Positions 1 to 20,000 of a stretch of DNA of 20,000 nucleotides are shown piece after piece (positions within the stretch are counted from its first letter, which is position 1; each line of letters opens with the position of its first letter). Origin of the DNA: Euglena gracilis (lineage: Eukaryota); NCBI GenBank assembly GCA_039621445.1, contig CP154954.1, positions 5,853,389 to 5,873,388 of the forward strand. The letters run 5' to 3'. The notes beneath the pieces were generated by a model that saw only the letters and a list, made by a program, of their open reading frames with translations, made no database searches and was not told the DNA's origin. The position numbers and the translations under genes are program-made.

Positions 1-57
1 GTCCGACGGGGCGTGGCACTGTGGTCGTTACCGGAATCGGTGCTTCCACAGGTGCTG
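1..57 (-). pseudogene. Continuation of the Pro-rich 3' ORF beyond element M
   Basis: Reads (S)APVEAPIPVTTTVPRPVG, in frame with ...MGEFPGV once M is removed. Confidence 0.75.
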
Positions 58-61
58 ATAC
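58..61 (+). other. Left target-site duplication ATAC
   Basis: ctgATAC|tgtgtg; identical to 1735-1738. Confidence 0.9.
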
Positions 62-306
62 TGTGTGCGGCGCCAGGTTTAAAATTTAAAAACCCAAAAT
101 TGAATTAGGAGGCGCCTATCCTAATTACAAAATCTCTATTTTTGCAGCTGCAACTGTCCTGAACTCTTTGACTCAAGGAAGGCCTGAACGCCAGATGAAG
201 ATTTCAAGTCTTGGTTTGTGCTATGCTGAAGGAAAGTGAGTGCTGCTGGAAAGGAAAAGTTTTCAAGTTTGACCCCCAGTGGGTACAAGGAGAAACTCAG
301 AAAACA
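62..306 (+). repeat. 5' LTR of element M (245 bp)
   Basis: TG...CA ends. Differs from 1491-1734 by 6 substitutions and 2 small indels (counted by eye). Confidence 0.93.
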
Positions 307-1064
307 CAAAGAGTTCAATTGTTGCTCAAGGCCTGGAGGCCAAAAGTCAGCCAGTTTGGCCAGAAGAAATGGACATTTCAGAAAGTGTCAAGTCAGGGAT
401 TGTCAATGATGAAAAAATCTGGGAAAATCAATGCTGCAGAAAACTTGGCTGGAAATCTGAGCTGTATGCAGTAAAATTTCAGTATGTTGTTGAAATCATT
501 GACAGATTGTAATTGAAGACCCCCAACATTGATGCATTCAGTTTGGAAGAAAGCAAGATATTCAAATGCTGGTGGGGACCTGGGTCACAATTTGTGGAAG
601 ATTCCTTCACAGTGAAGTGGACACATTCCATTGTTGGATTGTTGTGGTCAAGTCCCCCCTTCAGCCTCATTGCAAATGTCATCCGCAAGCTGAAGAAGGA
701 TCATGGTCATGCGGTGTTGGTTGTCCCAAAGTGGGTTACTGCCCCCTGGTGGGAAGATCTTCAAGACATTGTTGTCAGAATGCTGGAGTATCCTTGTGCC
801 ACGCCGTTGTTTGAGTTGGTTGGGGCAGGGTTCACAGTCCCCCCCACAAAATGGCCAGTACAAGTGGCATTTGTCTGTGGAAGGATAAGTCAATGTTTCA
901 AATTGGCAAAAGTTCTCAATCCAATTTCAAGTTCAGCAAAAAGGAGAATGAGGAGGCAAAAGATGAAAAGAGGGTCCTCCCCACAAGTGCACCTTAGGCT
1001 CCAGGTCGGCACAGGGGACAGCCCAAATTTCAGTGATTCAAGTGGTGAAGTCTCTTTGCAATGA
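279..1064 (+). pseudogene. Dam-like (phage/DIRS-type amino-) DNA methyltransferase ORF with one in-frame TAA at 510-512
   Basis: ORFs 279-512 and 513-1064 share a frame. Motifs P-IDAF, DSF--KW, LWSSPPFSLIANVIRKL and AVLVVPKWVTAPWWEDL follow the DIRS/phage Dam pattern (IDLFAS...DAF...W...NPPF-LI--VL-K...ILV-P-W----WW--L). Basic tail KRRMRRQKMKR. True start codon uncertain. Confidence 0.8.
307..317 (+). promoter_or_regulatory. Self-priming primer-binding site of element M (Tf1/sushi type)
   Basis: CAAAGAGTTCA directly after the 5' LTR is the exact reverse complement of TGAACTCTTTG at 160-170 in the LTR. No TGG-initiated tRNA PBS is present. Confidence 0.8.
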
Positions 1065-1481
1065 TTGTGTGTTCAATCTGAGCCCCCTCCTTGCGAAGTG
1101 GGCTTTGAGTTTGTGCTGGCCAGTGGCCCAGGCCCAGGGCCCAGGTGGGAGAACCGCTACAAGGGGGCCTACCCACAGGCCCTGGGACTCCCCCTGGCAG
1201 CCCCCCACTGGCCCTCTCATCCCAGGAGTGCCCTGGGGAAGGTTGGGAGGGGGACCAACCTTTCCCAGGGTGCCCCAAGGGCTCTGGGGTGGGCTGGTGG
1301 CCCTGTGGCCCCCCTACTTGTGCTGGACATTGTTGGACTAAATCCCTGTCAGCTGTATTATATCCCTGACTCAGCGTTCAAAAATTTAAAAAAAACAAAT
1401 TTCAGCCGCCCCCCCCCCCCAAAAAAAAGGCCAATTTTGGCGCCGCAAAAAATTGCCGAAGGCAGTGGGCACGAAGTGTCC

Positions 1482-1490
1482 AGAGAGGGG
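1482..1490 (+). promoter_or_regulatory. Polypurine tract of element M
   Basis: AGAGAGGGG immediately 5' of the 3' LTR TG. Confidence 0.85.
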
Positions 1491-1734
1491 TGTGTGGGCG
1501 GCGCCAGGTTTAAAATTTAAAAACCCAAAATTGAATTGGGAGGCGCCTATCCTAATTACAAAATTTCTGTTTTTGCAGCTGCAACTGTCCTGAACTCTTT
1601 GACTCAAGGAAGGCCTGAGCGCATGAAGATTTCAAGTCTTGGTTTGTGCTATGCTGAAGGAAAGTGAGTGCTGCTGGAAAGGAAAAGTTTTCAAGTTTGA
1701 CCACCAGTGGGTACAAGGAGACACTCAGAAAACA
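1491..1734 (+). repeat. 3' LTR of element M (244 bp)
   Basis: Copy of 62-306, preceded by the PPT and followed by ATAC. Confidence 0.93.
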
Positions 1735-1738
1735 ATAC
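1735..1738 (+). other. Right target-site duplication ATAC
   Basis: gaaaaca|ATACacccgg; identical to 58-61. Confidence 0.9.
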
Positions 1739-4700
1739 ACCCGGAAACTCTCCCATTGTCCGTGGGACGGCAGGGATCCTGCGCGGTGTCGGTGGTCGTG
1801 GGGGTATTTCTTCCACTTCCATTTTGACATCCGGTCGAGGAGGTTGATCCTCCACAACCGCTGGCGCAGGTGCTACGGGAGGTTGATCCTCCGTTGTAGC
1901 CGTTGCGACAGATGTCTCTGTCGGTTGGGGTTCATCCCCTGAAGATGGTTGCGCTGCTGCCGGAGGTGGGGGTGCCGGGACACCGATATCCGGCGTCTCC
2001 ACAACCTCAGTGGCAGAGCTTGATGCTATGCCTCCACCTCGTGGCGTTAGTGCAGAAGCCACGGCAGTAATGCCAGTGACGACGGCGCCGAGCACACGGC
2101 CTCCTAATGAGGTGCGTGCTGTGGGGCTGGCAGGTTCTTCGAGGGTATCCTCGATGACCATACCAGTCACCTCAGCTTCAGGCTCAGCCGCCGGGAGAGG
2201 CGTTGCAGCCACAGGTATATCCCCTGTGGGTGCTTCGTCTGGCCGAGGCTGTGCTGGGGCAGGCAGATCAGCGTAGAGGATAGCCTCCACGTTCTCGCCT
2301 TCCTCCTGAGGGAGTTCCTCGTCTCCACCTGCCGGTGGACAGACGGGAGCCGCGGCCGCGGGGGCCGGGGAGACTGATCGTTCCCCTGCCGCCCGTGGGG
2401 CAGAGACGAAGGATACAGCCGTCCCTGTCGGAGACAGCGGCGCTGCCTCCAGGATAGTGACGGAGGGGCTGCGGTCGCGATCCTCTCGCCGCGGAATCGC
2501 GGTGGTGGAAGCGACTGACTCCTCACGTCTCCTTCGCGCCAGAGGTTCATCCTCCGGGGCGATGAAGGCGCGCAGATCCTCGGGCGAACGCGGATCGTCG
2601 GGGTGCCATCGGCATCCCTGAGCATCCGCCAGCCTGTAAAAGGCCAGCGTACTGCTGCGGGGCTGTTGGGCCAGGGTGGCGGCCATGATGGCTGCACCCA
2701 AGCGTTGGCAGGCCTTTTTGGGCCCAGAACACCGCCGTAGCGCGTGTTTTCCCAGACGTCGAAAACGCCCTCCTCGAACTCCTGAACGCATGCCAGAATC
2801 GGCATACGCTGTTCGAGGATGGCCTCCGGGTGACACATCAGCGGGAGGAGTACCTCCCGGTCGAGGGTACCGCCAAACTGTCGCCGCAAATGTTCCTCCA
2901 TGTTGATATCAGCCAGGTGCCAGTTGGGGTGCAGGTGGCCGAGAATCCGACGACAAGGGCCCTCGATGGCGTCACCGTAATTCGGTGGCAGGCTTTCCAT
3001 ACCAGGCCTATCGTCCTGGGGGTCACGGAGATGTATATACACCTCCATGACATAGGTGGTCCAGGCTCGCCACCAGAACTGCTGCAGCATAAAAATACGC
3101 TGCTTGTGGACGCGGCGACTTTTGCCCTGGACATCCGGGGCGTCGCGGCACACATGCATAAGCATGCGGCGTCCCATCTCCAGGCCCGGGTTTTCCCGAG
3201 GCGGTGGAGGACTTCCGCGCACGCCTAATCCCCAGAAGTCGACAGGAAATTCCTGCCGGCAGTACTTACAACAGAGGTCATACCTCTGCAAGCCAGGGAA
3301 ATGCGCTTAACGCGGAAGGTGGAGCCGTAATGGCTCACCAGCCACACCTGGAGGTTGTTGCACCACAACACCTCGATCAGGCGTTCGATGTCGGGGTGTA
3401 GTGGGTAGAATTCCTACTGCACGCCGAGGGGTCTGACTCTATGAATACAGTCGTAGATTGCCTTCAGCCTTCGGGCCAACACACGCTGGTCCCGAAATCT
3501 CAACTGGTGCAGGTAACTGCGACCAGTGGAGTCGCTGAAGAGACCCCAGTTCAGGCAGGGGTATCCCAGCCAAAACAAGAGCTCCCAGAAACCCGGCTGG
3601 GCATCCAGCAAAGGTCTGCCACCTTCACCTTCGAAGGCTTACAGATCTCTTCCGTAATGGAATAGTCTGACTCTGTTCTCGGTGTGGCGTAATACCACAT
3701 CGATGACTGCTTGTGGAGGGGTGACGGGGCGGTTTCCTGCAATATGGTAACCATGCTGCATTCGCCAGCCTTCGTCCTCCAGCTCCTCCTTGCACCTGAG
3801 CATACGCTCAAAGTCCGAGAGGACTTCTGCTGGTTCCTCTTCCTCCTCACGTGCTGTTCCCTTACCTTTACCCTCACCCTTCCCTTTGCCGGCCACGCCT
3901 TTGCCTTCTCCCTTGCCTTTGCCCTCAGCCCAGCCTGTGTCCTTTCCCGTCTGGGGAATACCAGAGGGTCGGGCGCTCGGTGCCGCCGGAGTCGGTTCGG
4001 TTCCTTCCTATTCCATCTCTGGGGAGGGACCTGGCCGACCCGCTGCACGTCGCGGTGACGGCGTGGCTGGGGGTTGGCTAGGAGTCTGGCGTGGGCTTGG
4101 CTTCGGCGCAGGTGGTCGCGGCTCCTTCCATACCGGAGGAATCGGCGGTGGTATTGTGGCAACAGGACGGCTCATCGCCACCTCTGCCTCTGCCGGTGGT
4201 TTTCCAGCCGGGGTTACCTGGCTGGCTTCCACCTGCATCGCCACACCGCCTTCCGCGTCCCGTGGGCTGGGTCGCCTGGGCTGTGGGGTAAGGTTCTCCG
4301 TAGTCCTGTCGCGCTTCAGGGTGGCAGGTAATACTGCCACACCTGCCGGGGGCTCGCCGGGTAATACCGGGGTTGCCACCCGCAGCTGCGGCTGGTACGG
4401 ATGGCATGGGGTGTATCCACGGCCTGAAGGGCAGCCAGAGAGGAGTAATACCTCGACCGGTGCTCTTCAGACACGAATACTGGCTCCTGCAGGAAGTGCC
4501 GAGCAAGCTCATCCTGCTCGGTTTCCGGAGGTGCCATGTGATAGTAGGGAGTCTCCTGCCGACGGGGGATATCCCCAGTCTGGACCGGAGCTGCACTGGG
4601 CGGTCGGGCTGCCACACGGTGGGGAGGTTCATCCTCCACCACTATGGGCTCCGCCTGCCGCCGTGGCTCAACGCCAGGGACAGGGGCGACCGGTGATGCC

Positions 4701-5691: not shown

Positions 5692-5965
5692 TCAGAAAGT
5701 GTTTATGTTATTGCGCTTGTTCCACGGCTTCCAATCCTGCTGGATATATCCAACAAAACTGGATGCTGGCTCCCAAGTGTCCTCCTCTGGCCCATACCCT
5801 TTCCAGCGAACTTTCCAGTAGTGCACACCCCTGTCGACCTTGTGGTCTATTATCCTATCGAACACAAAGTCGTCCGTTTCAGGTAATCTGGAACGGGGCT
5901 TGAAATACAGGCAGGGGATAGCTTTTCCGTCTGGGGGGCTTAGGTACGGTTTGAAGTCGTCCATA
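5692..5965 (-). pseudogene. pol: C-terminal chromodomain of integrase
   Basis: [10 protein letters not shown]...[22 protein letters not shown], a canonical chromo motif with aromatic-cage residues. Stop at 5692. Confidence 0.95.
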
Positions 5966-5969
5966 TGTG

Positions 5970-6650
5970 TTGAAGTTTTGTAAAAACGATTTCCGTTTGT
6001 TGGAATGAATTTCTGTGATACGTGATTGGACTGCAGAGCGGAGTGATTCCACTTCTGCAAACCACGTTTCACAGCTGACGCTACTTCGGGCGGGTCTCTC
6101 CGACGGGATATCCCCTATGGCCGGAGGGTCTCGTCCGAAAACAATTTTGTACGGCGAGTGTGGTAATACCAACCCTGGCAAGGTATTGATGTAAAATAAA
6201 CACCAATGAAGAACGGATAACCAATTCTTACCCGAGTCGGCCAGTGAAAGGCGAAGCATATTGACAACGGATTTCACGGCTGCCTCGGCTCTACCATTGC
6301 CTTTCGGGCGGTATATAATGGAAAAATGCTGCTAAATGCCGAGTAAACCGCACAAAGTGGTGAAAAACCGCGAAGAGATCAAGTGATCTTGATCACTCAC
6401 AATTTCGTTCGGTAAACCCATTAAGCAGATACATTTCTCCAAAAATATGGATGCCAGAATTTGGGCCGTCAACCCTGCTTTCCGGCATGGAATGGCTACA
6501 ATGTACCCACTCAGCCGACAGACGACAACAAAAATTGTAAATTTTGTCATATTATCCTTTGCAAGGTTCAAGTTCGAGAAAGTCCATGCAGAGGGACGTA
6601 AAAGTGTCTGGTGGTACGGGGAAAAAGTCCATCGTACCAGGGGGGGTACC
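5970..6650 (-). pseudogene. pol: Integrase catalytic core (DDE), frameshifted
   Basis: SLCMDF, CRLSGYIVAIPC, GLPNEIVSDQD, NGRAEAAVKSV, SPYKIVFGRDP. Confidence 0.93.
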
Positions 6651-7691
6651 TCAGCGCGGTTTAACAGCCTGGCAAAATTGGCACCGTTGGGAAATTCGCA
6701 AACAGCGCGAATATAAATCTTTTGCACTCAGGGTTGTGCCATATCTGCGACCCACTAGTGAAAGAAGTTTGGGGGCCCCAGGGTGACCATGGTTGTGATA
6801 CCTCAAAATCACATCATCAACCAGGTCTTGGGGTATACAATATTTATAACCAGAAACATTCCGGAAAATAAGCCGCAATGGTGATAGAGAGTAATTCTCT
6901 ATGGATTCACCATTACGAAGTCTATTCACAATGGTACTATATATAGGGTCACGCGAATAGTCCCATTCGCGGAAAAATAGGGGGGTAGGAGTTTCCGTAC
7001 GCGTAATGCGACGGGGTGCGGCAGTGCGTCCACGCCGGCGCCTTCCACGCAATGGTGAAATGGCGATGCTGCGATATACCCGGGAAACGGGTAGTGAACC
7101 GAGCATGTTGTCCGCAGCGTCGGATCGACGTGCGAACTGGTCAGCCTCATGGCTGCCATAAAAAGTCGCATCACCCTCATCCGGGTTCCCAGGATAATCC
7201 CAGGGGGCTCGGCTGAGAGGATCCGCAACTTTTTGTGTATGACCTGGGGTATAGATAACCACCAGGTTAAACTGGCTCAAGAACTCATGCCATCGGCATC
7301 TTCTGCCAACTGATGACATGGCCTTGTTTAGGTCCTCGGTATACCAGTGTTGAAGGCTCTCATGATCCCTCAACACGAGTATCTGGACAAAGCTGCTGGC
7401 TATCCAGCTGCGGAATGTCTGGAGAATAAGCACAATGGTATATGTCTCCTTTTCGCGAATGCTCCATTTAACCTGTCCTTTCCCGTTGTCGCCCTGTAGC
7501 TTCCTGCTGAAGAAAGCCACAGGTCGGAGTTCATTCGCCGCATTATGCAGGCTAAGAACCCCGCCAACAGCGTAATCGCTGCTGTCGACTTCCAGGACAT
7601 ATGGTTTATATGGATCCGCGATATCGAGAACCACGTTCTCGAGCAGCAAGTCCTTGATTTTATTGAAGGCCTCGCGCATTTGGTCATCCAA
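6651..7691 (-). pseudogene. pol: RNase H and integrase HHCC zinc-binding domain
   Basis: VDSSDYAVGGVL, PVAFFSRKL, EKE, DHESL, VADPLSR; then YHNHGHPG...CQFCQ. Confidence 0.95.
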
Positions 7692-7735
7692 AATGACTTT
7701 TGCGTTATCGGGTGTCCTATTTTTGAGTTGTCGGG

Positions 7736-8640
7736 TTAGTGGTAACTGCGATTTTTTGCGAAATCTTTCATGTAAATCGCGTAATATTGGGCTAATCCCA
7801 AAAATCCCTTTAAATGCGTTAAGGTCTTAATGACCTCAGGAGTCCATTTCTTAATGGCCTCCATCTTACTGGGTGCCGCTTTACGCTGCCCGTTGCTCAG
7901 GATATGCCCGCAAAACTTAATAAATTTGCAAAACAGGTGCATTTTGGAACCCTTCACAAAAAGCGCATGCTTTTTGAACGCAGATAATACCACCCACACA
8001 TCGCGATAGTGCGGTTCGAGGATAGCCTCGCCCGATTTCGCGGATGGCGGTTGGGTTCCCACCAGTACATCATCGATGTACACCAGAGCAAACGGTAAAT
8101 CGCGCAAAACCCACTGGATCATGCGTTGAAACATGGCTGGACCATTCCTTACACCCATGGGGAGTACCGTCCATTGGTACACACCCTTGGATGTCACGAA
8201 TGCCGTGTACGGTTGCGAATCAGGATGCAAACGCATCTGATGGAAACCGTCTTCCAGATCAAAGATTGAGCACAACCGGTTATCCGATTGTCTGGTGATC
8301 AAATCTTTGATCAGCGGTAACGGGAAGGGGTCATCCTTCGTTTGGGAGTTCAGGTACCGGTAATCCAGCACTAGTCTCTACTTCTTTTGACCAGACTGGT
8401 CAGCGGGTTTGGGCACCACAAAAACCTGTGATGTCCATTCGCTCTTGGAAGGGATAATCCACTTCCGCTGGATGGGTTTCTCAATCATCTCGTTGAGAGC
8501 TTGTTCGCGTTCACCCGAACAACGGAAGAATTTACGGTGCATGGGTTTAGCGCCATCCTTGAGCTCGATTTTGCAAACACCGAACGGGCCGCGAATCGCG
8601 GGGTCGATGTCGCTGGCGTATACTGGGTTATCCAGTACAC
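7736..8640 (-). pseudogene. pol: Reverse transcriptase (Ty3/Gypsy)
   Basis: SEWTSQVFVVPK...K*RLVLDYRYLN (TAG at 8378-8380), FDLEDGFHQMRL, LPMGVRNGPAMFQR, YIDD (8069-8080), FCGH, LKGFLGLAQYY. Frameshift near 7745. Confidence 0.97.
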
Positions 8641-8784: not shown

Positions 8785-9400
8785 TGCGTCAAAGAAACAA
8801 ACGCCAAAAATTATTTCTTTAACCGGTGGTAATAATATACTGGACGTCCTCAATCCCGTTGCGCAAGGTAACTTTATATCGCCCGCTACTACCTAACCTC
8901 TCCAAAATTTCGCATGGGCCGAGCCAAAGAGGATCTAGCTTGGAGGATTGCATGCGGGTGCGGTTATTCCGTACCCACACGTGGTCACCTGGACTATACA
9001 CAGGCACAAAAATCCTCGAATAGTGGTACATCAGCGGGTAAATCCCACCAGTGGAAACACACATGGGATAGTTGGTGAAACCAATCCGCATTCGGATTGA
9101 CGGGTATGAGGAGAGCTCCTCGCGCTTCATCGCGGAGGATTTTCTCCACCACATCCGGGAAAAAGTTCGGGAGAGGGTGCATCCAGAGCACCGTATCACC
9201 CCAAAATTTCAGAAATGCGTTGGAATGTCGCGACCAATATCGTGACAAGCGCGCATGCGCTTTTGATGAAAACACATCAATTTCTAATGACAAATCGAAG
9301 GAATCAGCCACAACCGCGATTTTGGAGAACGATCCCTCCAAAATTCGGTATTGACCAAAATTTAATGCGTTCCATACGCGCATCGCGTATGTGTCGACCT
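8785..9400 (-). pseudogene. Dam-like methyltransferase domain inside pol, between protease and RT; split by the 168-bp insert
   Basis: IDVFSS---ARLSRYW...NAF-KFW...LWMHPLPNFFPDVVEKILRD...ALLIPVNPNADWFHQL...PLFEDF [insert] ILLPPVKEIIFGVCFFDA. Colinear motif by motif with the element M protein. The catalytic motif is degenerate (HPLP). Confidence 0.75.
8841..9008 (-). other. Displaced integrase C-terminal GPY/F segment (168 bp)
   Basis: Encodes VPVYSPGDHVWVRNNRTRMQSSKLDPLWLGPCEILERLGSSGRYKVTLRNGIEDV. Homologous to element B ~15370-15525 and absent from A's integrase at ~5966-5969. Confidence 0.92.
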
Positions 9401-10743: not shown

Positions 10744-12198
10744 CTACCTCCATCTGTTCATCAGCCCAGAGGTCCGTTCCCTCGGACCTCGGGCTCCCCT
10801 ACTCCAGGTCCGAACCGGCCGAATAGCCGCTATGGGCCTTTTAGAGGTGTAGAAGGATTTCAACGTGCGCACCGCCATGCGGGCATCGTCGAAATCGGTA
10901 TCCGTGGTCTCATCCCCCTCCCTGCCCGAAGCCGGGGTGTCATCCTCCAAACAAGATATCTTGAAACCGACTTTATGGCGGTTGGAGGAGTGACCCTTGT
11001 CACCGCGATTCATACCGCGATGACGTTGGCCAGGGCGTGGAGAACGAGAACGCAGACATTTGGATGAGTGGTGATCACTCGATCCACAAAGCGAACACCG
11101 AGATTTGTGTCGCGATTCTGGGTAACGGGGGGATCGGTTTCCCGATTTCCCGTCAACCGTCGCGGTGACCGGATATCCCGTCGACGATGACCGGTGTATC
11201 GAGGTTTTCCCGACGAGGATCGCGAAGAAGATGATCCGCTTCGCAAAACACGATCGCGATGTCTCGCGATGAGAATCACACTTCTTGGACAGGGCACCGG
11301 GTGACCTACCCCGAGGGGTACCGTGTTTCCGCTCATCGCGGAACGGGATCCGGGGGCTAATACCACCGGAACGGGGACCCGATGACCGTGAATTGCCCGA
11401 TTGGCGTGAAAACGTGGAGGAACCCGAACCCCGTGATGAGGTCGAGCCTCGTGGACTCTGAATACGCTTACACACTTCAGGATTAGGACATTCCCGAGAC
11501 ATATGTCCCGCTTTGTTGCACAAAAAGCACACTTTATCCGTGGCTTGGTCCGAAGAACGCGGATATCGCGTTTTCGATCCCGTGTTTGGTGAGGTGGGTG
11601 AAACCGGTGATTTTTGCAATGCGTTCACCGAACCAGCCGGTAATCCAGCGGTTGGGTGTGCGTTATACGCGGATTGCATCTGACCAAGAAGCTGTGATAG
11701 CTTCAACTGCTTGGAAACGTAGTTCCAGCGTTGGTCAAGAGTCATTGGATGACTCGCCAACCCATCACGGTGGATATCCTTGATGAGGCTAGGCGTGAAA
11801 TACATGAGAACAGCATCAAACTGTTCGCGCACTTGCTTTTCACTGAGTTCATCCACTTCGGCGGCAAGTCCTAACCATTTGGCATACCAAAGGTCAATGG
11901 ACTTCCACGTGCGATCGGGTGGGGCGCATTGCCGCCACTTGGTCTCTAGGGTAATCCTAGCGACCAAACTTGAACTGGTGGAAGCGTATTGCTCCACCAG
12001 GTCATCAAGGGAAACACGGTAGCGAATCACGAGTTGTCGCGCGCGTTCCTTCTCATCCCTAGGGAGGCAATCGATTAATTCCATCTTGATCACCTCCGGG
12101 TTTGTGTCCTGGGTTGGCCCTTTTAATGCCCAGTAGTACTGCCAGTCCCGGAAAAACTGTCTCCATGCGGTTGGATCACCGTCGCATTGGGGTTTCAC
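10744..12198 (-). pseudogene. gag: Gag capsid-like domain plus two CX2CX4HX4C zinc knuckles in an R/S-rich region
   Basis: Capsid-like start (DGDPTAWRQFFRDW). Knuckles CFLCNKAGHMSREC (11488-11529) and CSLCGSSDHHSSKC (11056-11097). Confidence 0.88.
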
Positions 12199-14771
12199 CT
12201 TATTCGCGATTGCGATGGTGCCCTTGAAGTCTTTCTGAGAAACCCAGTGACCGTCGGTGGTATTCCGTGGTTTTGGGCCTGGGTACGCTCGAGCACCAAG
12301 CGTATCCTTTCCGGAATCTTGGCGGAATTCGCGATTTCTGGTGAAGGTGAATCCTGGTACCGGAAATCCGGTCGCAAACCCTGTTGGGCACCCGTAATAC
12401 GGGGACTCTCCGGTGTGGGGGTATGTCGCCCATGCAACATGTGACCCACTCCCGGTGTACGGGTTTGGCTCATTCCATGCACAAGCATGGAATGATGGAT
12501 TTCTTGGCGGAGACTTGGCGGAATCGCCGTGTTTTCCGAAAATTCGGTTCCCGTAATGGGAAATTCATCCGAAAACTGGGTTTGGGTTGTGGGCAAGGCC
12601 AATGGTGGCACAATTCGCGGACTCGCGGATTGTGACACTCGGGACACGGGTTGTGGTGGTGCATGTGCACCTAGAGTCGGGTTATGGAAACGCGACTCTG
12701 CAACATTTGGCGCGTCTTCGGCATTGCATACTGCCGAATTGCGGTGTGAAACCCGCTGTTGGTTGGACACATTATCCAAACACACAGACAAGTCATGCAC
12801 AGTTTGCTCCAAGTGCTCAACGAGTTGGAGTTGACCGCAAATAAGATCAACTCGATCCTCCAAAGCGCGAATACGCTTGCGGTAACGGGAAAAGTCATCC
12901 GAGTGCGGAAACCTTTCGGAAATTTCGGTAACATCTTGGACAAGGTTCCCGTGAGAATTATCCAATAATTGGAGTTGTCCCATTAATGCTTTTACAGCAT
13001 TTGAGAGAATCTGCAGTTACCTTGGTTGGTGTGGTGGTGGGTGGAACCGGTGCAGCGTTATCCGACAACGCGGTTGTGGTACCCACGGGAAAATTTGCGG
13101 ATTGCAGCTTATCCAAAAACGCGGAAATTCGCTCATCCAACCTGGTAATTTCACTTTGCGTGGATCGGGCATTCCGATTCACCGATTCCTCAAGCCGTAA
13201 TAGGCTGTTGCAGAAATCTTGCAATGTTTCCTGATTGTCAGTGAGCATTTTGTCATAAAATGCCTTGAAATCGGGGTTCTCGGTAATCCAGGAATTGGAA
13301 CATGCAGGTAGAGACTGCATTTCTGTTTTTTTAGCAGACACCGATGCATACCGGGTCTGGAGTTCCCCAATAGCAGTTTGAATACCTCTAATGTCCGGAA
13401 CTCGGTGGGAAAGTGCGGAATAGCTTTGTTGCAAACCCGCAATGGCCGAGTTAATCCCGCCAATGTCGGATTGCAACTGCAACTGCAGGGAATCCTGCCG
13501 TTGTGCTACTTCCGCGACTTTCGCGCTCAGATTGGATAATCCAACCTGATTTGCGTCACAATAGCAGGTTTTCTGATCCAAGCGGGACAGTCGCTCCTCC
13601 AACTGCCGCACATACGTGTGGGGAGCAAAATTCTCGTTGGCTTGTGACTGGAATTGCCGAAATTTTTCTGTTTCATCGCACAATTGCATAATGCGGTGTT
13701 GCGATTCATGGAAAGTTGCGGACAATGTGGTGAAATGGTCCATAGACACAAATCCACCACTGTTTGATGTTGCAGACAAGGAATGTCGTGCATGCAACTG
13801 TTGTTGCAAATGCACGAGATTGTTGCAAATGAACAGGACTCCATTTTTCCCGATAACTGTTGTAGTGAGTCATGCAAGTGCAGAAACTTGGAATCATTCC
13901 GCGTTTCCGCTTCATGCATGCATTCACTAATTAGCCGGAAGTTTTGCGGGAGTTGTTGGCATATTTTGTCAAAGGTTTCCCGAAAGCTTGCAAGGTCAAT
14001 ACCCGCACTTTCGAAATTCCTCTGGCAATATTTGCCAACTTCTTGCAAATAATTCCAGCAGTATTCCAGCTTGGTGAAGACATGTTTTTGGTTGTCCTCA
14101 TCAAACTGGAGCACTTTGTTGAGTGCGGTTGCACAATCTGCAACGCATTGTTGCACATGGTTGAACTGCCTCACAAGGGGGTGATCCCCTGGAAGCTGAG
14201 CAACGATATCCTGCACATCCTCAGCAGTGAGGAGCTCACCAGTGCCCTTCCCATAGCCATCCATGTGTTGGGACGTACCGGAGAATTCCGGTACCACTAG
14301 GCGAGTCTCCGGTTGCCAAGGTAGTGCGGGATAGCACCCAAGATCGGGTGGTGGTGGCAAAGCTCTGTAAGGGCTTGCCGGTGGAAGAACGGGTGGTGGT
14401 TGAAAGAAACACGGGGTTTCTAGCTCACCATCACCAGAGAAGCCCGGTGGCTGAATCACCACGGGTCTCTCCGGTGTGTGCAGCTGCACCATTGCCGCAG
14501 ACAGAGGCGAATACCCCCGTTGTGACAAGGTGAGTGCGGAAGAGGCCGCATTAGCCTCTGAAGCCAGTGATGTGGAGGGCTCATTGCCGACCACTGTCAA
14601 TGATGACAAATGTTGCAATCTTGACAATTGAACCAATTGTGCCTCATCGGCGTGGGAACTGGAAGCACTTTCACATAAAAGCTTCCAATCCCCATTTTCC
14701 TGGTCAATGTCTTGCAATGATGCCTGTAATAAGGCATAGTTGAATTGATAGTTGGGGCCTGTGCTTTGCAT
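12195..14771 (-). pseudogene. Long helical/coiled-coil N-terminal extension of gag (or separate upstream ORF), frameshifted
   Basis: ATG at 14771 (MQSTGPNY). Overlapping ORFs 13527-14855, 12958-13815 and 12195-12983 chain by frameshifts. Q/E/L-rich heptad-like stretches (VRQLEERLSRLDQK, IRALEDRVDLICGQL). Confidence 0.65.
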
Positions 14772-15053: not shown

Positions 15054-15367
15054 TGTAAGTCTGATTCCCAATTCCCTTTTCCCAATTCCCAAAAGCCTTC
15101 GCTTTCGCCTTGGCGCACCTACTTGGGAACTGAAAATCATAGTAACAGAAAATCCCTTTTTCCCACTTCCCAAGAAGCAAAGCACAGAGCAATGCAGGGA
15201 GGACGGACTGGATATCCAAGTCCGGTCCGGAGAAAAGGAAGGACAAAGGGAAAAACAGAATACCACCTGTGGAGAGAGAAGGGGCACCCATTAGGAGATC
15301 CTAATAGGATCTGCTTCCATCCTAACTTCCTCAACGGAAGGGGACAGAAGCATATGCCTGGTACACA
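15054..15367 (-). repeat. 5' LTR of element A (~312-314 bp; start at 15367 or 15365)
   Basis: Begins TG(TG)TACC where element B's integrase homology stops (NGVE|). Ends CTTACA two nt before the PBS. The partner LTR is not in the window. Confidence 0.8.
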
Positions 15368-17243
15368 CCTCGACACCGTTGGGTAAAGCGACTTTATAGC
15401 GCCGACTTGTACCCAACCGATCAAGGATCTCACATGGTCCCATCCAGAGGGGGTCCAACTTCGTGGATTGCATGCGAGTTCTACCGTTCCGAACCCACAC
15501 GCGGTCACCTGGGTTGTATACCGGTGATTTGTAATCTTGTAAGAATTGTTTTTTTGTTTTTGTAAGTGTATAGCGACTACGTGCTTTTGCACATCCGTGC
15601 GCAATGATTCTACTTCAGAGAACAATGTTTCGCAGCTCACGCTAGAACGAGCGGGTCGTTCTGACTCGATGTCGCCCATGGCTGGGGGGTCTCGTCCGAA
15701 GACGATTTTGTACGGTGAGTATTGTAATATCAGACGCGGTAAAGTGTTGATATAAACACCAGGGTAGTACTTGTAGCCAGGCATTGTACGATTCGGCCAG
15801 TGAAAGTCGTAGCATGTTGACTACAGCTTTCACTGCCGCTTCAGCGCGACCATTTCCTTTTGGACGATAAATAATAGAAAAATGCTGCTCAGTTCCTAGT
15901 AAATCACAAAGAATTGTAAAAAATCGAGCAGTAATCAAATGGTCTTGATCACTCACGATATCATTCGGTAAACCCAGGAGGCAAATGCATCTTTCTAGAA
16001 ACGTTTGTGCCAAAACTTGTGCTGTCAACCATGCTTTCTGGCATGGAATGGCTACAATGTACCCACTCAGCCGACAGACGACAACAAGAACGTAATCGCA
16101 AATTTTGTCATCTGTTCCTTTGCAAGGTTGAAGTTCCAGAAAATCCATGCAGAGGGAAGTAAAAATGTCATTTGGTACGGGGAAGAAATCCAACGTACCA
16201 GGGGGGGGTACCTCTGCCCGGTTTCACAGCTTGACAAATTTGGCACCGTTGCGAATTTTGTAAACAGCGCTTGTACAATTTTTTTTCGGTCAGGGTTGTA
16301 CAGTATCTGCGACCCACCAAAGAAAGAAGTTTGGGGGCCCCAGGGTGACCTTGGTTGTGATAACATAAAAGTTCGTCATCAACCAAGTCACAGGGTATGC
16401 AGTATTTATATCCAGTATCATTTCGGAAAATCAAACGTAAAGGTGATAAGGTATAATTCTCAACCAATTCACCATTACGTAATCTTTGTACGACATTATT
16501 GTATAAATCATCCTTGGAATAATCCCATTCAAGAAAAAAGAGACGGGTTGGATATTCTGATCGCGCAACTCGGCGGGGGCCCGGCATTATGCAGCGTTTT
16601 CGTTTTCCCCGTACGGGGGCTATCGGCATCCGCCGCCAAGTCCGCGAAACAGGAAAGTTGTCAAGCAGGTTGTCAGCGGCGTCTGCGCGCCTTGCGTATT
16701 CGTCGGCTTCGCGACTTCCGTGGAACGTGGCATCACCCTTGTCAGGGTTACCAGGGTAATGTCAGAGTGCACGTAAAAGTGGGTCTGCGACTTAATGAGT
16801 ATGACCTGGTGTGTAAACTACCACCAGGTTGAATTGACTCAAAAATCCGTGCCAACGGCATCTTCGGCCAACTGAGGACATGGCTTTGTTCAAGTCTTCG
16901 TTGTACCAGTGTTGGAGAGACTCATGGTCTGTCAACACTAGTATTTGTACGAGTGAACTGGCGACCCTACTTCGGAATTTTTGTAGGATAAGGACAATGG
17001 CGTACGTCTCCTTTTCTCGTATGCTCCATTTGTACCTTGTAGCTTTCTGCTGAAGAAAGCTACAGGGCGCAGTTCATTGGACGAGTTATGTTGACTCAAC
17101 ACACCGCCGACGGCATAGTCGCTCCTGTCGACCTCCAGTACGTATGGTTTGTATGGGTCGGCAATGTCAAGTACAACGTTGTCCAACATCAGTTGTTTAA
17201 CTGTCGTTAGCGATTCTGGCATTGTATCATCCCATTGTATCGT
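15368..17243 (-). mobile_element. pol: Fragment of a related Gypsy (element B): RNase H, integrase HHCC, core and GPY/F; degenerate
   Basis: LDIADPYKPYVLEVDRSDYAVGGVL, YHNQGHPG...CQICQ, GLPNDIVSDQD, KLDPLWMGPCEIL. Colinear with A 5970-7700 but clearly diverged. Cut at both ends by LTR-like termini. Confidence 0.93.
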
Positions 17244-17856
17244 TGGGGGGATTAGAGGACCCTCGCCGCCCGGGGGGGCTGCTTTTTTCGCTGGGGCCAC
17301 AAATTCCTTTTGCTGGCCCTGGTGGGCTCAGGCCAGGGCCTTTGGTAAGTTGGGCCCCGTTTTCGAACATGCCAACCGGCGGTAATGGGGGTGAGGTGTG
17401 CCCCCCCGACCCGGGGTCCCCGGTTGCCCCGCGTAGGATTTTTTTTTCTTTCCATTGTTGGTTTTTCCCCATGTTTTCAACTTTGAACTTTCAGGATGAA
17501 ATTCAACAATGACAAACCAACCCACCTACTTAGGATCAAACAGCAGAGCACAACAAACCTGGGACTTGAGAGGGTGGGCAAGTACCTTTGAGTTCAGGTG
17601 TTGAGTGGGACAAAGAATGTGGAAATGAATGCCTTGGCTTCCTTTTGATGTTTGAATTGTTCTTATTGGCTCCTCAATTCCCAATTGAACAATTTGCTTT
17701 TCTGATTCTCAAATCGACTTCTCAAATTCTTCCAGGAATTTGCTGGGGTTCCAATTCCACTCGCGTGGCGGTTTACTTGGTTTTTGTTATTCCTACTGGG
17801 GGTTTTTGGGAATTTTCTGGGAAATTGTTGGCTGCCGATGCCAGCGGAAGCCGACA
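17244..17856 (-). repeat. Probable 3' LTR (~613 bp) of a third element (C) inserted into element B
   Basis: Starts TGTCGG right after a purine tract and ends CCCCCA where B's pol homology resumes (TIQWDDTM). No partner LTR in the window. Confidence 0.6.
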
Positions 17857-17867: not shown

Positions 17868-19135
17868 GCGACGTTAGTCGGACCCCTTTTTCGCCCCCCC
17901 CCCACCCGAGCAAAAACGGGGAGAGTGAAATTGTTTTTTTTTGTGGGGGGGCGAAAATTCTGTGTTTTTTTTTTTGAAACGGGTCCTGTCGCTTTTTTTT
18001 GTTGAAAATCACTGTTACGAGTCTGACCCCCCCCTCAGCCATAATCGGGCACCTTGGAGGACTCTGAAAAATCAGGTCTACAGGGGGAGCCCCCCCACCC
18101 CTTTCCTCCGACGAGCATGGGGAACGGGTCTTTGAACACAAAATCTGAAAAACGATTCCAAACGAAACAAACTCTGGGCACTCCACCCCAAGGCCTAAGT
18201 CCCACGCTACCCCCTTGGTGAAAATCCTTTTTGGCAGCTTTCATTGTGTGAGACTTCATTTGTCGATTCTTTTTTTAAAAAAATCAGGGACTTTGGCCAA
18301 CAGTGCTTCAGAAAATGACTTGTGTGGGGAAAGAAAAGGAGAAAACCAGGCATTCCTTTCCAATTCGGGACAGAAAAGGTAAGGAAAAGGCTGAAGGTGA
18401 ATGGGTGCAATGGTGAGAGTGTAAGACGGTTATATACGGCGGGAATAGTGTACAATGGGTGTGCGGGTTCGTGTGCGTGTGTGGTTGTGTGTTTTGTGTG
18501 TCTGCACGCTCACTTCCTTGTCATGCATTCCAACCGAAAATGACTGGGCCGATTATTTTTTTGAACACAAAGAGAACAGGGCTTCGCAATGGCCCTCAGC
18601 CACTATGTCACAGGGCTTTAGTGCCCAGGTGGCTGGTTTTTTTTTTCATTGGCCCACAACAGGGCCTATGGACGGAGGAGGGGTCATCTTCGGTCCAGGG
18701 TCCACCCACCCCCACCCGAGTTTGGATGCCTCCAAGCTGCGTTCCATGAAAAAAATGCCTTTGACCAATATCCAATAGTCCAAACCGAATCAAAAAACTG
18801 AGTTTTAAAACTCCAACTCGTTTTGTCTTCCACCAGAAAGATTATCAAAACCCAGGTTTATCCAACTCTTTGAATAAAAATCCTCCAGCAACAAAAATCC
18901 TCAAAAAATCAAAAATCTGAGTCCAACCCACAAGTCCAGGGCCTACAAAAGCCCTCAACAAGATCCAAAATTCCAACTGCCATGTACAACAAACAAAGTC
19001 CAACCGAGACCAACTAACCCAACAGAAACAACATCAAGCGGCATACCGTTGCCTAGGGGCCAGGCCATTCCAGCACAACCCTGGGCACAACCAATTCACA
19101 GCCGGAACCAGCCAATTCGGCTTGCCAATTAAAAT

Positions 19136-19292
19136 TCACTGCCCCCCCCCCAATCACACGGGGCAATGGGGGTCAAATGGTCAAATGACATGGCAAACTC
19201 AAAAATACTGAAAATTCAAATCCAATTTTGTCAGCCAAATCGATTTTTCGCTGCCCCCCTCCAGTCACATGGGGCCATGGGGGTCAATCTGG
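19136..19292 (+). repeat. Imperfect ~45-bp direct repeat, 2 copies (19136-19180, 19247-19292)
   Basis: ttcactgccccccccccaatcacacggggcaatgggggtcaaatgg vs ttcgctgccccccctccagtcacatggggccatgggggtcaatctgg. Confidence 0.7.
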
Positions 19293-19699
19293 CTTCAGCC
19301 TCCAAACAAAAAAATCACAAACCTGGGCCGTAATATCCAAACCGGCTGCAATCTCACACATGTCAAAGGACAGGCCTTCACAATGTCGCCCCCCTCCCCA
19401 CCGTCAACCAATGCGAGGAGGGCCACGGGTTAAACATTCCTGGCTGCAAAACCGGAATCTCCATTCGACGAAAAAAAATGAGAAAAATGGAAATTTCATC
19501 AAATCCCGCCATATCTGGGGTATGACCAAAACAATCACGGTCACAATATGATGCATTCCTGTCCCCACCCAAACGTCTCACAGGGTATCCAATTCTGAGT
19601 CAAAAAATTCCAACCGTAAAGCCAAAACTGATTTTGTTCCACCACACCAACAAAAAACAGGGCTAAACACAGCCCCCCCCCCCCCCCAGCAGCACGAGG

Positions 19700-19998
19700 A
19701 GTGGAGAAAAAATGGCTCCAAACCACAAGCAAAATCCTGAGACCCAAAAACATGAAAAATCTGATTCAGCGCTGTGGGAGCAGCCAACCTGGGCCTGGAC
19801 CTGGGCTTTGGCCGTGCATCGGGCCACTGCCCACTGCTGGCTCTTGAGGTCATTAAGCTTCTCTCCCCAGCACTTCAGTAAGTAAATGTACCCACCATTC
19901 TGCAACTCCACAAACAATCCACAATTGCAATCATGACAATCGTAATCATGTGCTTCAATTGCTTGGGTCTCATTAATGTCATTGAAATCTGTTCTCAA
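19700..19998 (-). pseudogene. Possible coding remnant, unidentified; probably enters from the right edge
   Basis: Open frame with ordinary protein-like composition (GLFVELQNGGYIYLLKCWGEKLNDL) in CpG-poor sequence. No recognised motif. Confidence 0.25.
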
Positions 19999-20000
19999 TC

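Follow-up and report, generated by a model that had tools for sequence, protein, structure and literature searches.

In a 20,000-nt stretch of the Euglena gracilis genome (GenBank assembly GCA_039621445.1, contig CP154954.1, positions 5,853,389 to 5,873,388 of the forward strand; the whole stretch is referred to as the window), positions 62–1734 hold a compact element of 1673 bp that is bounded by long terminal repeats (LTRs) and whose interior (307–1490, 1184 bp) contains an open reading frame (ORF) for a DAM-like protein. A first-pass annotation, made from the sequence alone, had described it as a complete miniature LTR retroelement with a Dam-like DNA methyltransferase as its only cargo, and that description was followed up here by computational analysis. 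As to structure, we hold it firm that 62–1734 is a non-autonomous, putatively self-priming LTR element, present as a dead copy, whose only ORF is a DAM. The features of the element and of the sequence that it interrupts are as follows.

58–61 (+), left copy of the target-site duplication (TSD), ATAC
62–306 (+), 5′ LTR, 245 bp, TG..CA
160–170 (+), putative self-primer at the inferred 5′ end of the transcript, exact complement of 307–317
307–317 (+), putative primer-binding site (PBS) of the self-priming (Tf1/sushi) type, first 11 bases after the 5′ LTR
369–1064 (+), DAM-like ORF from its first ATG, 696 nt, in a frame open from 279 and broken by a TAA
510–512 (+), in-frame TAA, private to this copy
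648–662 (+), region of the catalytic tetrapeptide in degraded form, SSPPF as against ANPPF in the related database protein P0003
927–974 (+), basic C-terminal tail (SSSAKRRMRRQKMKRG)
1065–1480 (+), non-coding 3′ interior, GC-rich, with a hairpin of 16-bp arms (1231–1246/1255–1270)
1481–1490 (+), polypurine tract, a purine run abutting the 3′ LTR
1491–1734 (+), 3′ LTR, 244 bp, TG..CA
1735–1738 (+), right copy of the TSD, ATAC
1739–3306, continued at 1–57 (−), interrupted target, a repeat of high copy number whose long minus-strand ORFs have no known domain

Architecture, integration and decay of the compact LTR element

Over 242 aligned columns, global alignment of the two LTRs gave four transitions, two transversions and two gap runs, one of 2 nt and one of 3 nt, with a Kimura two-parameter distance of 0.025 and a likeness of 97.5%, which exactly reproduces the six substitutions and two indels counted in the first-pass annotation for the 245/244-bp TG..CA repeats. 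The polypurine tract reported there was likewise recovered as the purine run that adjoins the 3′ LTR. The claim that gag and pol are missing also held, since two reads of the main frame gave no match to any Pfam family (E ≤ 10), the six further ORFs in or overlapping the interior had no Pfam match (E ≤ 1), and tblastn of the three forward interior frames against the rest of the window returned a DAM-to-DAM match only. Within the 3′ interior, the hairpin at 1231–1270 is near-perfect, and the 426-nt GC-rich 3′ region folds with a z-score of −2.1, 2 of 100 shuffles being equally stable; no Rfam match to this interior rose above threshold, and the six matches obtained over window 1–3400 were all far below gathering scores.

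Contigs of the public runs X1, X2 and X8 (DNA) and of run X15 were placed on window 1–3000 at a likeness of at least 88%. Part of window 1–2400 is contained in 20 run rows, and 19 rows in 15 studies contain between a fifth and 0.56 of the sampled words. In total, 5088, 6053, 2326 and 3 contigs were placed from X1, X2, X8 and X15, respectively, with 30 of 30 bins covered in X1, X2 and X8; most contigs of the runs measure about 200 nt, and contig depth does not equal copy number. Because thousands of contigs align to window 1–3000, both the element and its flanks are repeated sequence. The element itself is multi-copy, as sequences at least 88% like it occur in many distinct contig variants of several runs.

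Among these contigs, two of X1, two of X2 and one of X8 run from position 57 directly to position 1735 and omit 1677 nt; four letters at the joint could belong to either side. Since position 57 is joined to 1735 with four letters common to both sides, the ATAC flanking the element is not a chance match. These joints prove empty sites in paralogous copies of the target and the entry of 62–1738 as one unit with a 4-bp duplication; the TSD and the unit insertion that the first-pass annotation had proposed are thus upheld, with ATAC on both sides and empty-site paralogues in three runs. Further and more diverged joints near the insertion (46 to 1749, 57 to 1740, 58 to 1740, 62 to 1746 and others) agree with this picture.

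The same annotation held that removal of the element restores a host frame. A minus-strand frame is indeed open through the junction once the element is taken out, but the "host" proved to be another high-copy repeat and not a single-copy gene. Among the rows listed, this target repeat is represented by about 15–80 contig variants per position in each DNA run. Its minus-strand ORFs (1691–2908 and 2167–3306) are partly rich in proline and alanine; they gave no Pfam match, and the flank ORF gave no usable match in the Atlas.

No TGG-type tRNA primer site follows the 5′ LTR. What does begin at the first base after this LTR is an 11-nt perfect complement to 160–170, a match equalled in 6 of 20,000 LTR shuffles, and the pairing between 160–170 and 307–317 is present in both the minimum-free-energy and the centroid folds of 160–330. 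Overall, this fold is no stabler than those of shuffled sequences (z −0.25), and only the pairing of the 5′ end with the PBS stands out. Tf1 for its part uses 11 nt and has a 5-bp TSD. Self-primed reverse transcription, as known from Tf1, Tj1 and the Tf1/sushi and Tcn1 chromoviruses, has as its hallmark a PBS that complements the 5′ end of the mRNA of the same element (PMC4600332, PMC6317226). The element resembles the Tf1/sushi chromoviruses in having a PBS that would pair with the 5′ part of its own R-U5 and not with a tRNA (PMC4600332, PMC6317226); it differs in having no pol that would place it in that group, and in its 4-bp TSD.

By analogy with these chromoviruses, we infer a transcription start near 160 in the 5′ LTR and a chromovirus-like helper. 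The first 11 bases of the RNA would then fold back on 307–317 and prime minus-strand synthesis, and Gag, reverse transcriptase (RT) with RNase H, and integrase would be supplied in trans by an autonomous, probably chromovirus-like, partner. The structure as observed, with its paired LTRs and duplicated target site, is that of an LTR retrotransposon of the integrase type.

The ORF of this copy has decayed. At positions 510 and 511, other contigs differ from the window (14 contigs in X1, 5 in X2, 9–10 in X8 and 1 in X15), so that a sense codon stands there and the stop is private to this copy. The first-pass annotation had suggested checking whether the TAA reverts, and it does: every other contig has a sense codon, and P0003 has a residue at this place. 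P0003 (284 amino acids) is uninterrupted and is 96% identical over a 183-residue part in a word-indexed search and 95% identical over 261 residues by HMMER; it has NPPF where the window copy has SSPPF. According to the contig comparison, the private differences alter 13 codons, 11 of them non-synonymously (including the stop) and 2 synonymously, and this 11:2 excess is, as judged from the codons, what a copy in decay since its insertion would show. With its stop codon, the missing Asn of NPPF and private changes that are for the most part non-synonymous, the copy at 62–1734 is dead, and other copies keep the frame. The full Dam-like motif series that had been reported for the ORF therefore stands only in part: the ORF is a DAM-type homologue, but its catalytic motif is degraded here relative to the NPPF of P0003.

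Family, predicted fold and candidate function of the DAM protein

Searching 1.84 billion representatives with phmmer yielded 1141 clusters at E ≤ 1e-3, with 197 reaching 1e-10 and 3 reaching 1e-30. In the family alignment, D108, F110, W137, W146, P173 and W175 are invariant and N148, P149 and P150 nearly so, and the motif [NDS]PP[FYW] is kept in 136 of 151 relatives (97 NPPF, 38 NPPY and 1 SPPY). The basic tail is also found in 61 of the 151 relatives, 57 of which end no more than 40 residues beyond it; it may serve nuclear entry of the DAM protein or its binding to nucleic acid.

The profile searches proposed in the first-pass annotation gave a divided answer. Neither the window ORF, with or without read-through, nor P0003 reached any Pfam model, and the family profile returned no match among PDB sequences (E ≤ 10). 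The Dam family PF05869 was, on the other side, matched by 54 of 63 relatives (E ≤ 0.01, best E 2.5e-11); among relatives scanned separately, P0060 (32.5 bits) and P0122 (28.8 bits) pass its gathering threshold of 28.1 bits. By profile comparison, membership in PF05869 holds for the family and is reached from the window protein only through relatives. Aligning the family profile by hhalign to the Dam ORF of a phage-like metagenome contig (L004), whose neighbours look helicase- and primase-like by eye, gave a probability of 96.9 and an E value of 1.5e-10. All 14 loci fetched with the conserved peptides of the family are prokaryote or phage contigs: the metagenome subset comprises four loci, all with prokaryote or phage-type Dam ORFs and without terminal repeats, and the viral-contig subset comprises ten, taken as phage from their collection and their 24–42% identities. 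Scanning metagenomes with P0003 itself gave 25 pattern matches and no relatives, and its Atlas look-up gave scores of at most 0.87, which are leads only.

Database relatives include a protein with protease (PR), DAM and RT in this order (P0122), one with PR and DAM (P0060), and one in which the DAM is followed by motifs of a cytosine-C5 DNA methyltransferase (DNMT) and which also has a retropepsin (P0052). The C5 motifs after the DAM are present in both P0052 (891 amino acids, with retropepsin DTGA) and P0013 (272 amino acids); they were named by eye from the alignment, and Pfam gave for P0052 the Dam match only. One of the 63 aligned relatives also matches Pfam Exo_endo_phos (E 4.4e-10), which would put a DAM domain beside a LINE-type endonuclease.

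Of 128 hits that include the core domain, small DAM-only proteins make up 83 (one being the window's own fragment, P0002); a long N-terminus is present in another 26, and the remaining 19 extend beyond the domain. In a rapid maximum-likelihood tree with 132 rows, the eukaryotic sequences were split from three prokaryotic Dams with a support of 100 in the Shimodaira–Hasegawa-like approximate likelihood ratio test (SH-aLRT). P0003 and three other small DAM-only proteins (P0006–P0008), the four closest to the window ORF, form one clade (SH-aLRT 98), which is nested in a 16-row group with 15 small members (SH-aLRT 86). Across the tree as a whole, the label "small" is scattered, and the idea that small DAM-only proteins form one lineage or signal a widespread miniature architecture was dropped; many of them may be gene-call fragments.

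AlphaFold modeled P0003 from 63 sequences with a mean pLDDT (predicted local distance difference test) of 76.5, and of about 90 or more in most of residues 81–235. Foldseek returned six PDB matches at E ≤ 1e-3, headed by PCIF1/CAPAM (6irw_B, E 8.4e-5) and including KsgA and DOT1L. Structural alignment with VIA-align gave Z scores of 11.5 for PCIF1 (144 residues aligned, root-mean-square deviation 3.1), 9.0 for DIMT1, 8.7 for ErmC′, 8.2 for T4 Dam, 7.8 for EcoDam and 7.7 for M.TaqI, and by calibration only PCIF1 is clearly above background. PCIF1/CAPAM methylates the cap-adjacent adenosine. The predicted fold is that of a class-I S-adenosylmethionine-dependent methyltransferase, with adenine-N6 enzymes leading the listed matches. 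The structure prediction called for in the first-pass annotation therefore found a methyltransferase fold, with PCIF1 as the best match, and the objection that the ORF has no such fold fails. Taken with the family profile, the model supports the ORF as a homologue of DAM-type adenine methyltransferases.

An intact DAM protein would be translated from the ATG at 369 and would methylate adenine in the element's own cDNA, in the RNA–DNA hybrid or in RNA. Fernandez-Moreno et al., in a preprint of May 2026 that reports 10,030 eukaryotic DAM proteins, most of them in one clade, propose that N6-methyladenine (6mA) on cDNA or the hybrid recruits host maintenance, and hypothesize that methylation favours permissive chromatin for new copies (bioRxiv 10.64898/2026.05.21.726589). 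Their model of 6mA on cDNA or hybrid fits the sequence kinship of the family to phage Dam. The alternative bears on function alone and does not touch the question of structure: in place of a DNA 6mA enzyme, the protein would be one that acts on RNA as PCIF1/CAPAM does, or one that binds nucleic acid or RNA polymerase II without catalysis.

Several lines point to such a role. PCIF1 is the best solved match and clear of T4 Dam and EcoDam, and the next are rRNA adenine-N6 methyltransferases such as DIMT1, KsgA and Erm; a single member of the 63 relatives reaches Pfam PCIF1_WW, with E 0.0015. For the methyltransferase domain of DIRS1, which they assign to the PCIF1 clade, Iyer et al. suggest that it binds transcripts or mimics PCIF1, and they consider the DIRS1 domains likely inactive (PMC4738411); eukaryotic DAMs expressed in dam-deficient E. 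coli brought no gain of 6mA in the assays of the preprint (10.64898/2026.05.21.726589). Against these stand the sequence, which is nearer to phage and prokaryotic Dam in the PF05869 and hhalign results, and the purely prokaryote or phage origin of the 14 fetched loci. The listed solved structures, moreover, include no PF05869 member, so that the structural ranking may be biased. A purely non-catalytic role also sits poorly with the retention of NPPF or NPPY in 135 of 151 relatives, and insertions of LTR elements carrying a DAM (DAM-LTRs) are reported to be richer in 6mA than other LTR elements (10.64898/2026.05.21.726589). On balance, methylation of DNA or of the hybrid is placed first, although at somewhat less than even odds; an RNA-directed or non-catalytic role comes behind it as possible but doubtful, and the rest falls to no activity at all.

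Copies of the element and the case for a one-off deletion

Our best explanation, with a probability of about 0.7, is that 62–1734 is a dead copy of a non-autonomous LTR family whose only gene encodes a retrotransposon-type DAM protein of about 230 residues. Its structural competitor, which we consider unlikely, is a one-off internal deletion of an autonomous DAM-LTR that lost gag-PR upstream and RT, RNase H and integrase downstream; the multi-copy signal would then come from full-length parents with the same LTR, DAM and 3′ interior. Such a double deletion could give the present layout, as the DAM lies between protease and RT in autonomous relatives (P0122, P0060).

Contig data speak against it. 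Run X15 has an 827-nt contig collinear with 147–963 (23 differences) and a 352-nt contig collinear with 970–1316 (4 differences); they cross the point just 3′ of the ORF and follow the window past it, where pol would be expected. The share of placed contigs that run into unlike sequence is 0 for X1, X2 and X8. Among the loose contig ends listed, beyond which there are 528 more, the only ones inside the element are three minor ends at 1094–1101, each of single or double contigs, and those with good support are all in the flanking repeat. The contig of P0003 is 1460 nt long; the first residues of the protein are translated LTR sequence, and only about 600 nt of room remain after the ORF. That the four closest proteins are all small and DAM-only, within the one clade described above, argues in the same direction. 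The length of the P0003 contig also equals LTR plus interior (1429 nt) plus 31, and a reading of it as a collapsed repeat unit was kept only as a weak hint.

Several results nevertheless weigh against the family explanation, in addition to the missing Pfam and PDB matches and the published reports on enzyme activity given above. Among the run contigs, mostly of about 200 nt, no second complete LTR-ORF-LTR copy was found, as a one-off deletion would have it. The label "small" is unclustered on the tree (it needs 38 changes, where shuffled labels average 39.1 and 201 of 500 shuffles need no more), which also favours deletion. A 1299-nt contig of X8 matches only 1429–1596 (169 nt, comprising the end of the interior, the polypurine tract and the start of the 3′ LTR) and then continues for about 1100 nt with no listed match; it agrees with a longer parent, and it may belong to another element that has this LTR, which would make it a candidate pointer to the autonomous partner. 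Within the window, no autonomous element sharing the LTR was found, and blastn of the element against the rest gave a best match of 19 nt. That X15 is RNA is a guess only, and any expression of the element would rest on this guess.

The last alternative, that 62–1734 is not an LTR retrotransposon but a DIRS-type element or a local tandem duplication enclosing a DAM pseudogene, can appeal to the fact that DAM domains were first known from DIRS elements, and is very improbable given the TG..CA termini, a polypurine tract exactly at the 3′ repeat and a primer site exactly at the 5′ repeat, the 4-bp duplication with precise empty sites in paralogous target copies, the absence of inverted or split repeats in the element, and the lack of a Pfam match to tyrosine recombinase in its ORFs.

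A DAM-bearing chromovirus-like element elsewhere in the window bears on the kind of partner that the compact family would need. Its domains, all on the minus strand and assigned by Pfam, are listed below.

10744–12564 (−), zf-CCHC gag
9015–9329 (−), DAM-like domain of the chromovirus-like LTR element (PF05869, E 8.8e-4)
7736–8377 (−), RVT_1
6651–7826 (−), RNase H and integrase zinc domain
6332–6727 (−), rve
5692–6114 (−), chromodomain

The element also has an SH3_Tf2-1-like integrase tail. By BLASTP, its DAM is 24% identical to the ORF of the compact element over 113 residues (E 4e-8), in an alignment that spans the TAA. As the autonomous partner it was rejected, because no LTR sequence is common to the two by blastn and the DAM is only 24% identical; from these comparisons, the chromovirus-like element is kin of the compact element and not its partner. 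It shows that the kind of partner envisaged, a DAM-bearing chromovirus-like element, exists in this genome.

Just after the chromovirus DAM lies a piece of an SH3-like integrase C-terminus (8854–8989), 71% like 15368–15524 of a second chromovirus copy, and its position beside the DAM suggests a nested or chimeric structure. This second copy is partial (15137–17327, minus strand; RNase H, integrase zinc domain and rve) and is 69–86% identical to 6026–7689. The two copies lie at a constant offset of about 9560 nt and may be arranged head to tail; LTRs of either copy were not found within the window. Further downstream, 19143–19287 holds two 34-nt C-rich direct repeats 111 nt apart, and GC skew is strongly negative over 18500–20000.

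Relation to known retrotransposons and meaning for the DAM family

The presence of a DAM in LTR elements and the retention of a single ORF by non-autonomous LTR elements are both already known. The literature searched on DAM-LTR elements yielded only the 2026 preprint, which describes DAM domains in DIRS and in Ty3/gypsy-like DAM-LTRs of green algae, an ochrophyte, ichthyosporeans, Pyropia and Euglena, together with "EpiLTRs" that combine DAM, DNMT and chromodomain (10.64898/2026.05.21.726589). The statement in the first-pass annotation that Dam domains are a DIRS feature is therefore outdated, all the more so as a Ty3/gypsy-type DAM-LTR lies in this very window. With these DAM-LTRs the compact element shares a retrotransposon-type DAM with an Asn-Pro-Pro pocket bounded by LTRs, and relatives of its ORF include PR-DAM-RT polyproteins and EpiLTR-like DAM plus DNMT forms; theirs are autonomous, with RT and integrase, whereas the element here has no gag or pol and measures 1.67 kb. 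The words "non-autonomous" and "LARD" (large retrotransposon derivative) do not occur in the main text of the preprint, and its two matches to words beginning with "trim" include the program trimAl.

Among non-autonomous elements, the nearest parallel is TR-GAG, also a short LTR element with PBS and polypurine tract that retains one parental ORF and borrows its enzymes (PMC13570524). What TR-GAG retains is GAG or GAG-PROT, a part of the particle, while the element here retains an accessory methyltransferase and has no zf-CCHC or gag match. Domain remnants as such are common, being present in 43 of 115 families in sugar beet (PMC13570524). With miniature terminal-repeat retrotransposons (TRIMs) and LARDs the element has in common short LTRs, a TSD, a polypurine tract, the absence of RT and integrase, and multiple copies; TRIMs, however, are defined as non-coding and shorter than 1–1.5 kb and LARDs as longer than 4 kb (PMC13570524), so the TRIM label of the first-pass annotation does not suit a coding element of 1673 bp. 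The methyltransferase domain of DIRS1, with its PCIF1 clade (PMC4738411), and phage Dam (PF05869) belong to the same protein superfamily as the DAM protein. DIRS elements themselves differ in having a tyrosine recombinase, inverted or split repeats and no TSD, where the element here is of the integrase type with a TSD. Retrotransposons carrying a DNMT are likewise retroelements with a DNA-modification enzyme, in their case a cytosine-C5 enzyme in autonomous elements (PMC5890265).

What is unusual is which ORF has been retained. No non-autonomous LTR retrotransposon with an N6-adenine methyltransferase domain was found in the literature searched, and a gag/pol-less LTR unit with a methyltransferase as its sole cargo is not described there. 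One far-reaching interpretation, which we put forward as speculative and rather unlikely in its full form, is that of an "epigenetic hitch-hiker": a lineage that shed all its replication genes and kept the methyltransferase under selection, so as to mark its own RNA, cDNA or new insertions and perhaps to serve a partner in trans. Compact LTR units of this sort would then carry a sizeable share of the orphan DAM-only proteins. If this were true, an accessory enzyme, and not Gag, would be the one function worth keeping in cis.

According to the preprint, 46.1% of eukaryotic DAM proteins have no transposable-element features, and they are read there as degenerate remnants or as a result of annotation limits (10.64898/2026.05.21.726589). 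If the short form is a family, part of these "orphan" DAM genes would be mobile units and not debris; if it is a single deletion product, 62–1734 would add no more than another decayed copy to a DAM-LTR family already known. The role of retrotransposon DAM domains is itself debated, with 6mA on cDNA proposed in the 2026 preprint and PCIF1-like RNA enzymes or inactive binders by Iyer et al. An element that has no gag or pol, and whose other copies keep the DAM frame intact, would offer this debate a minimal system made by nature, in which no protein other than the DAM could have a measurable benefit to the element.

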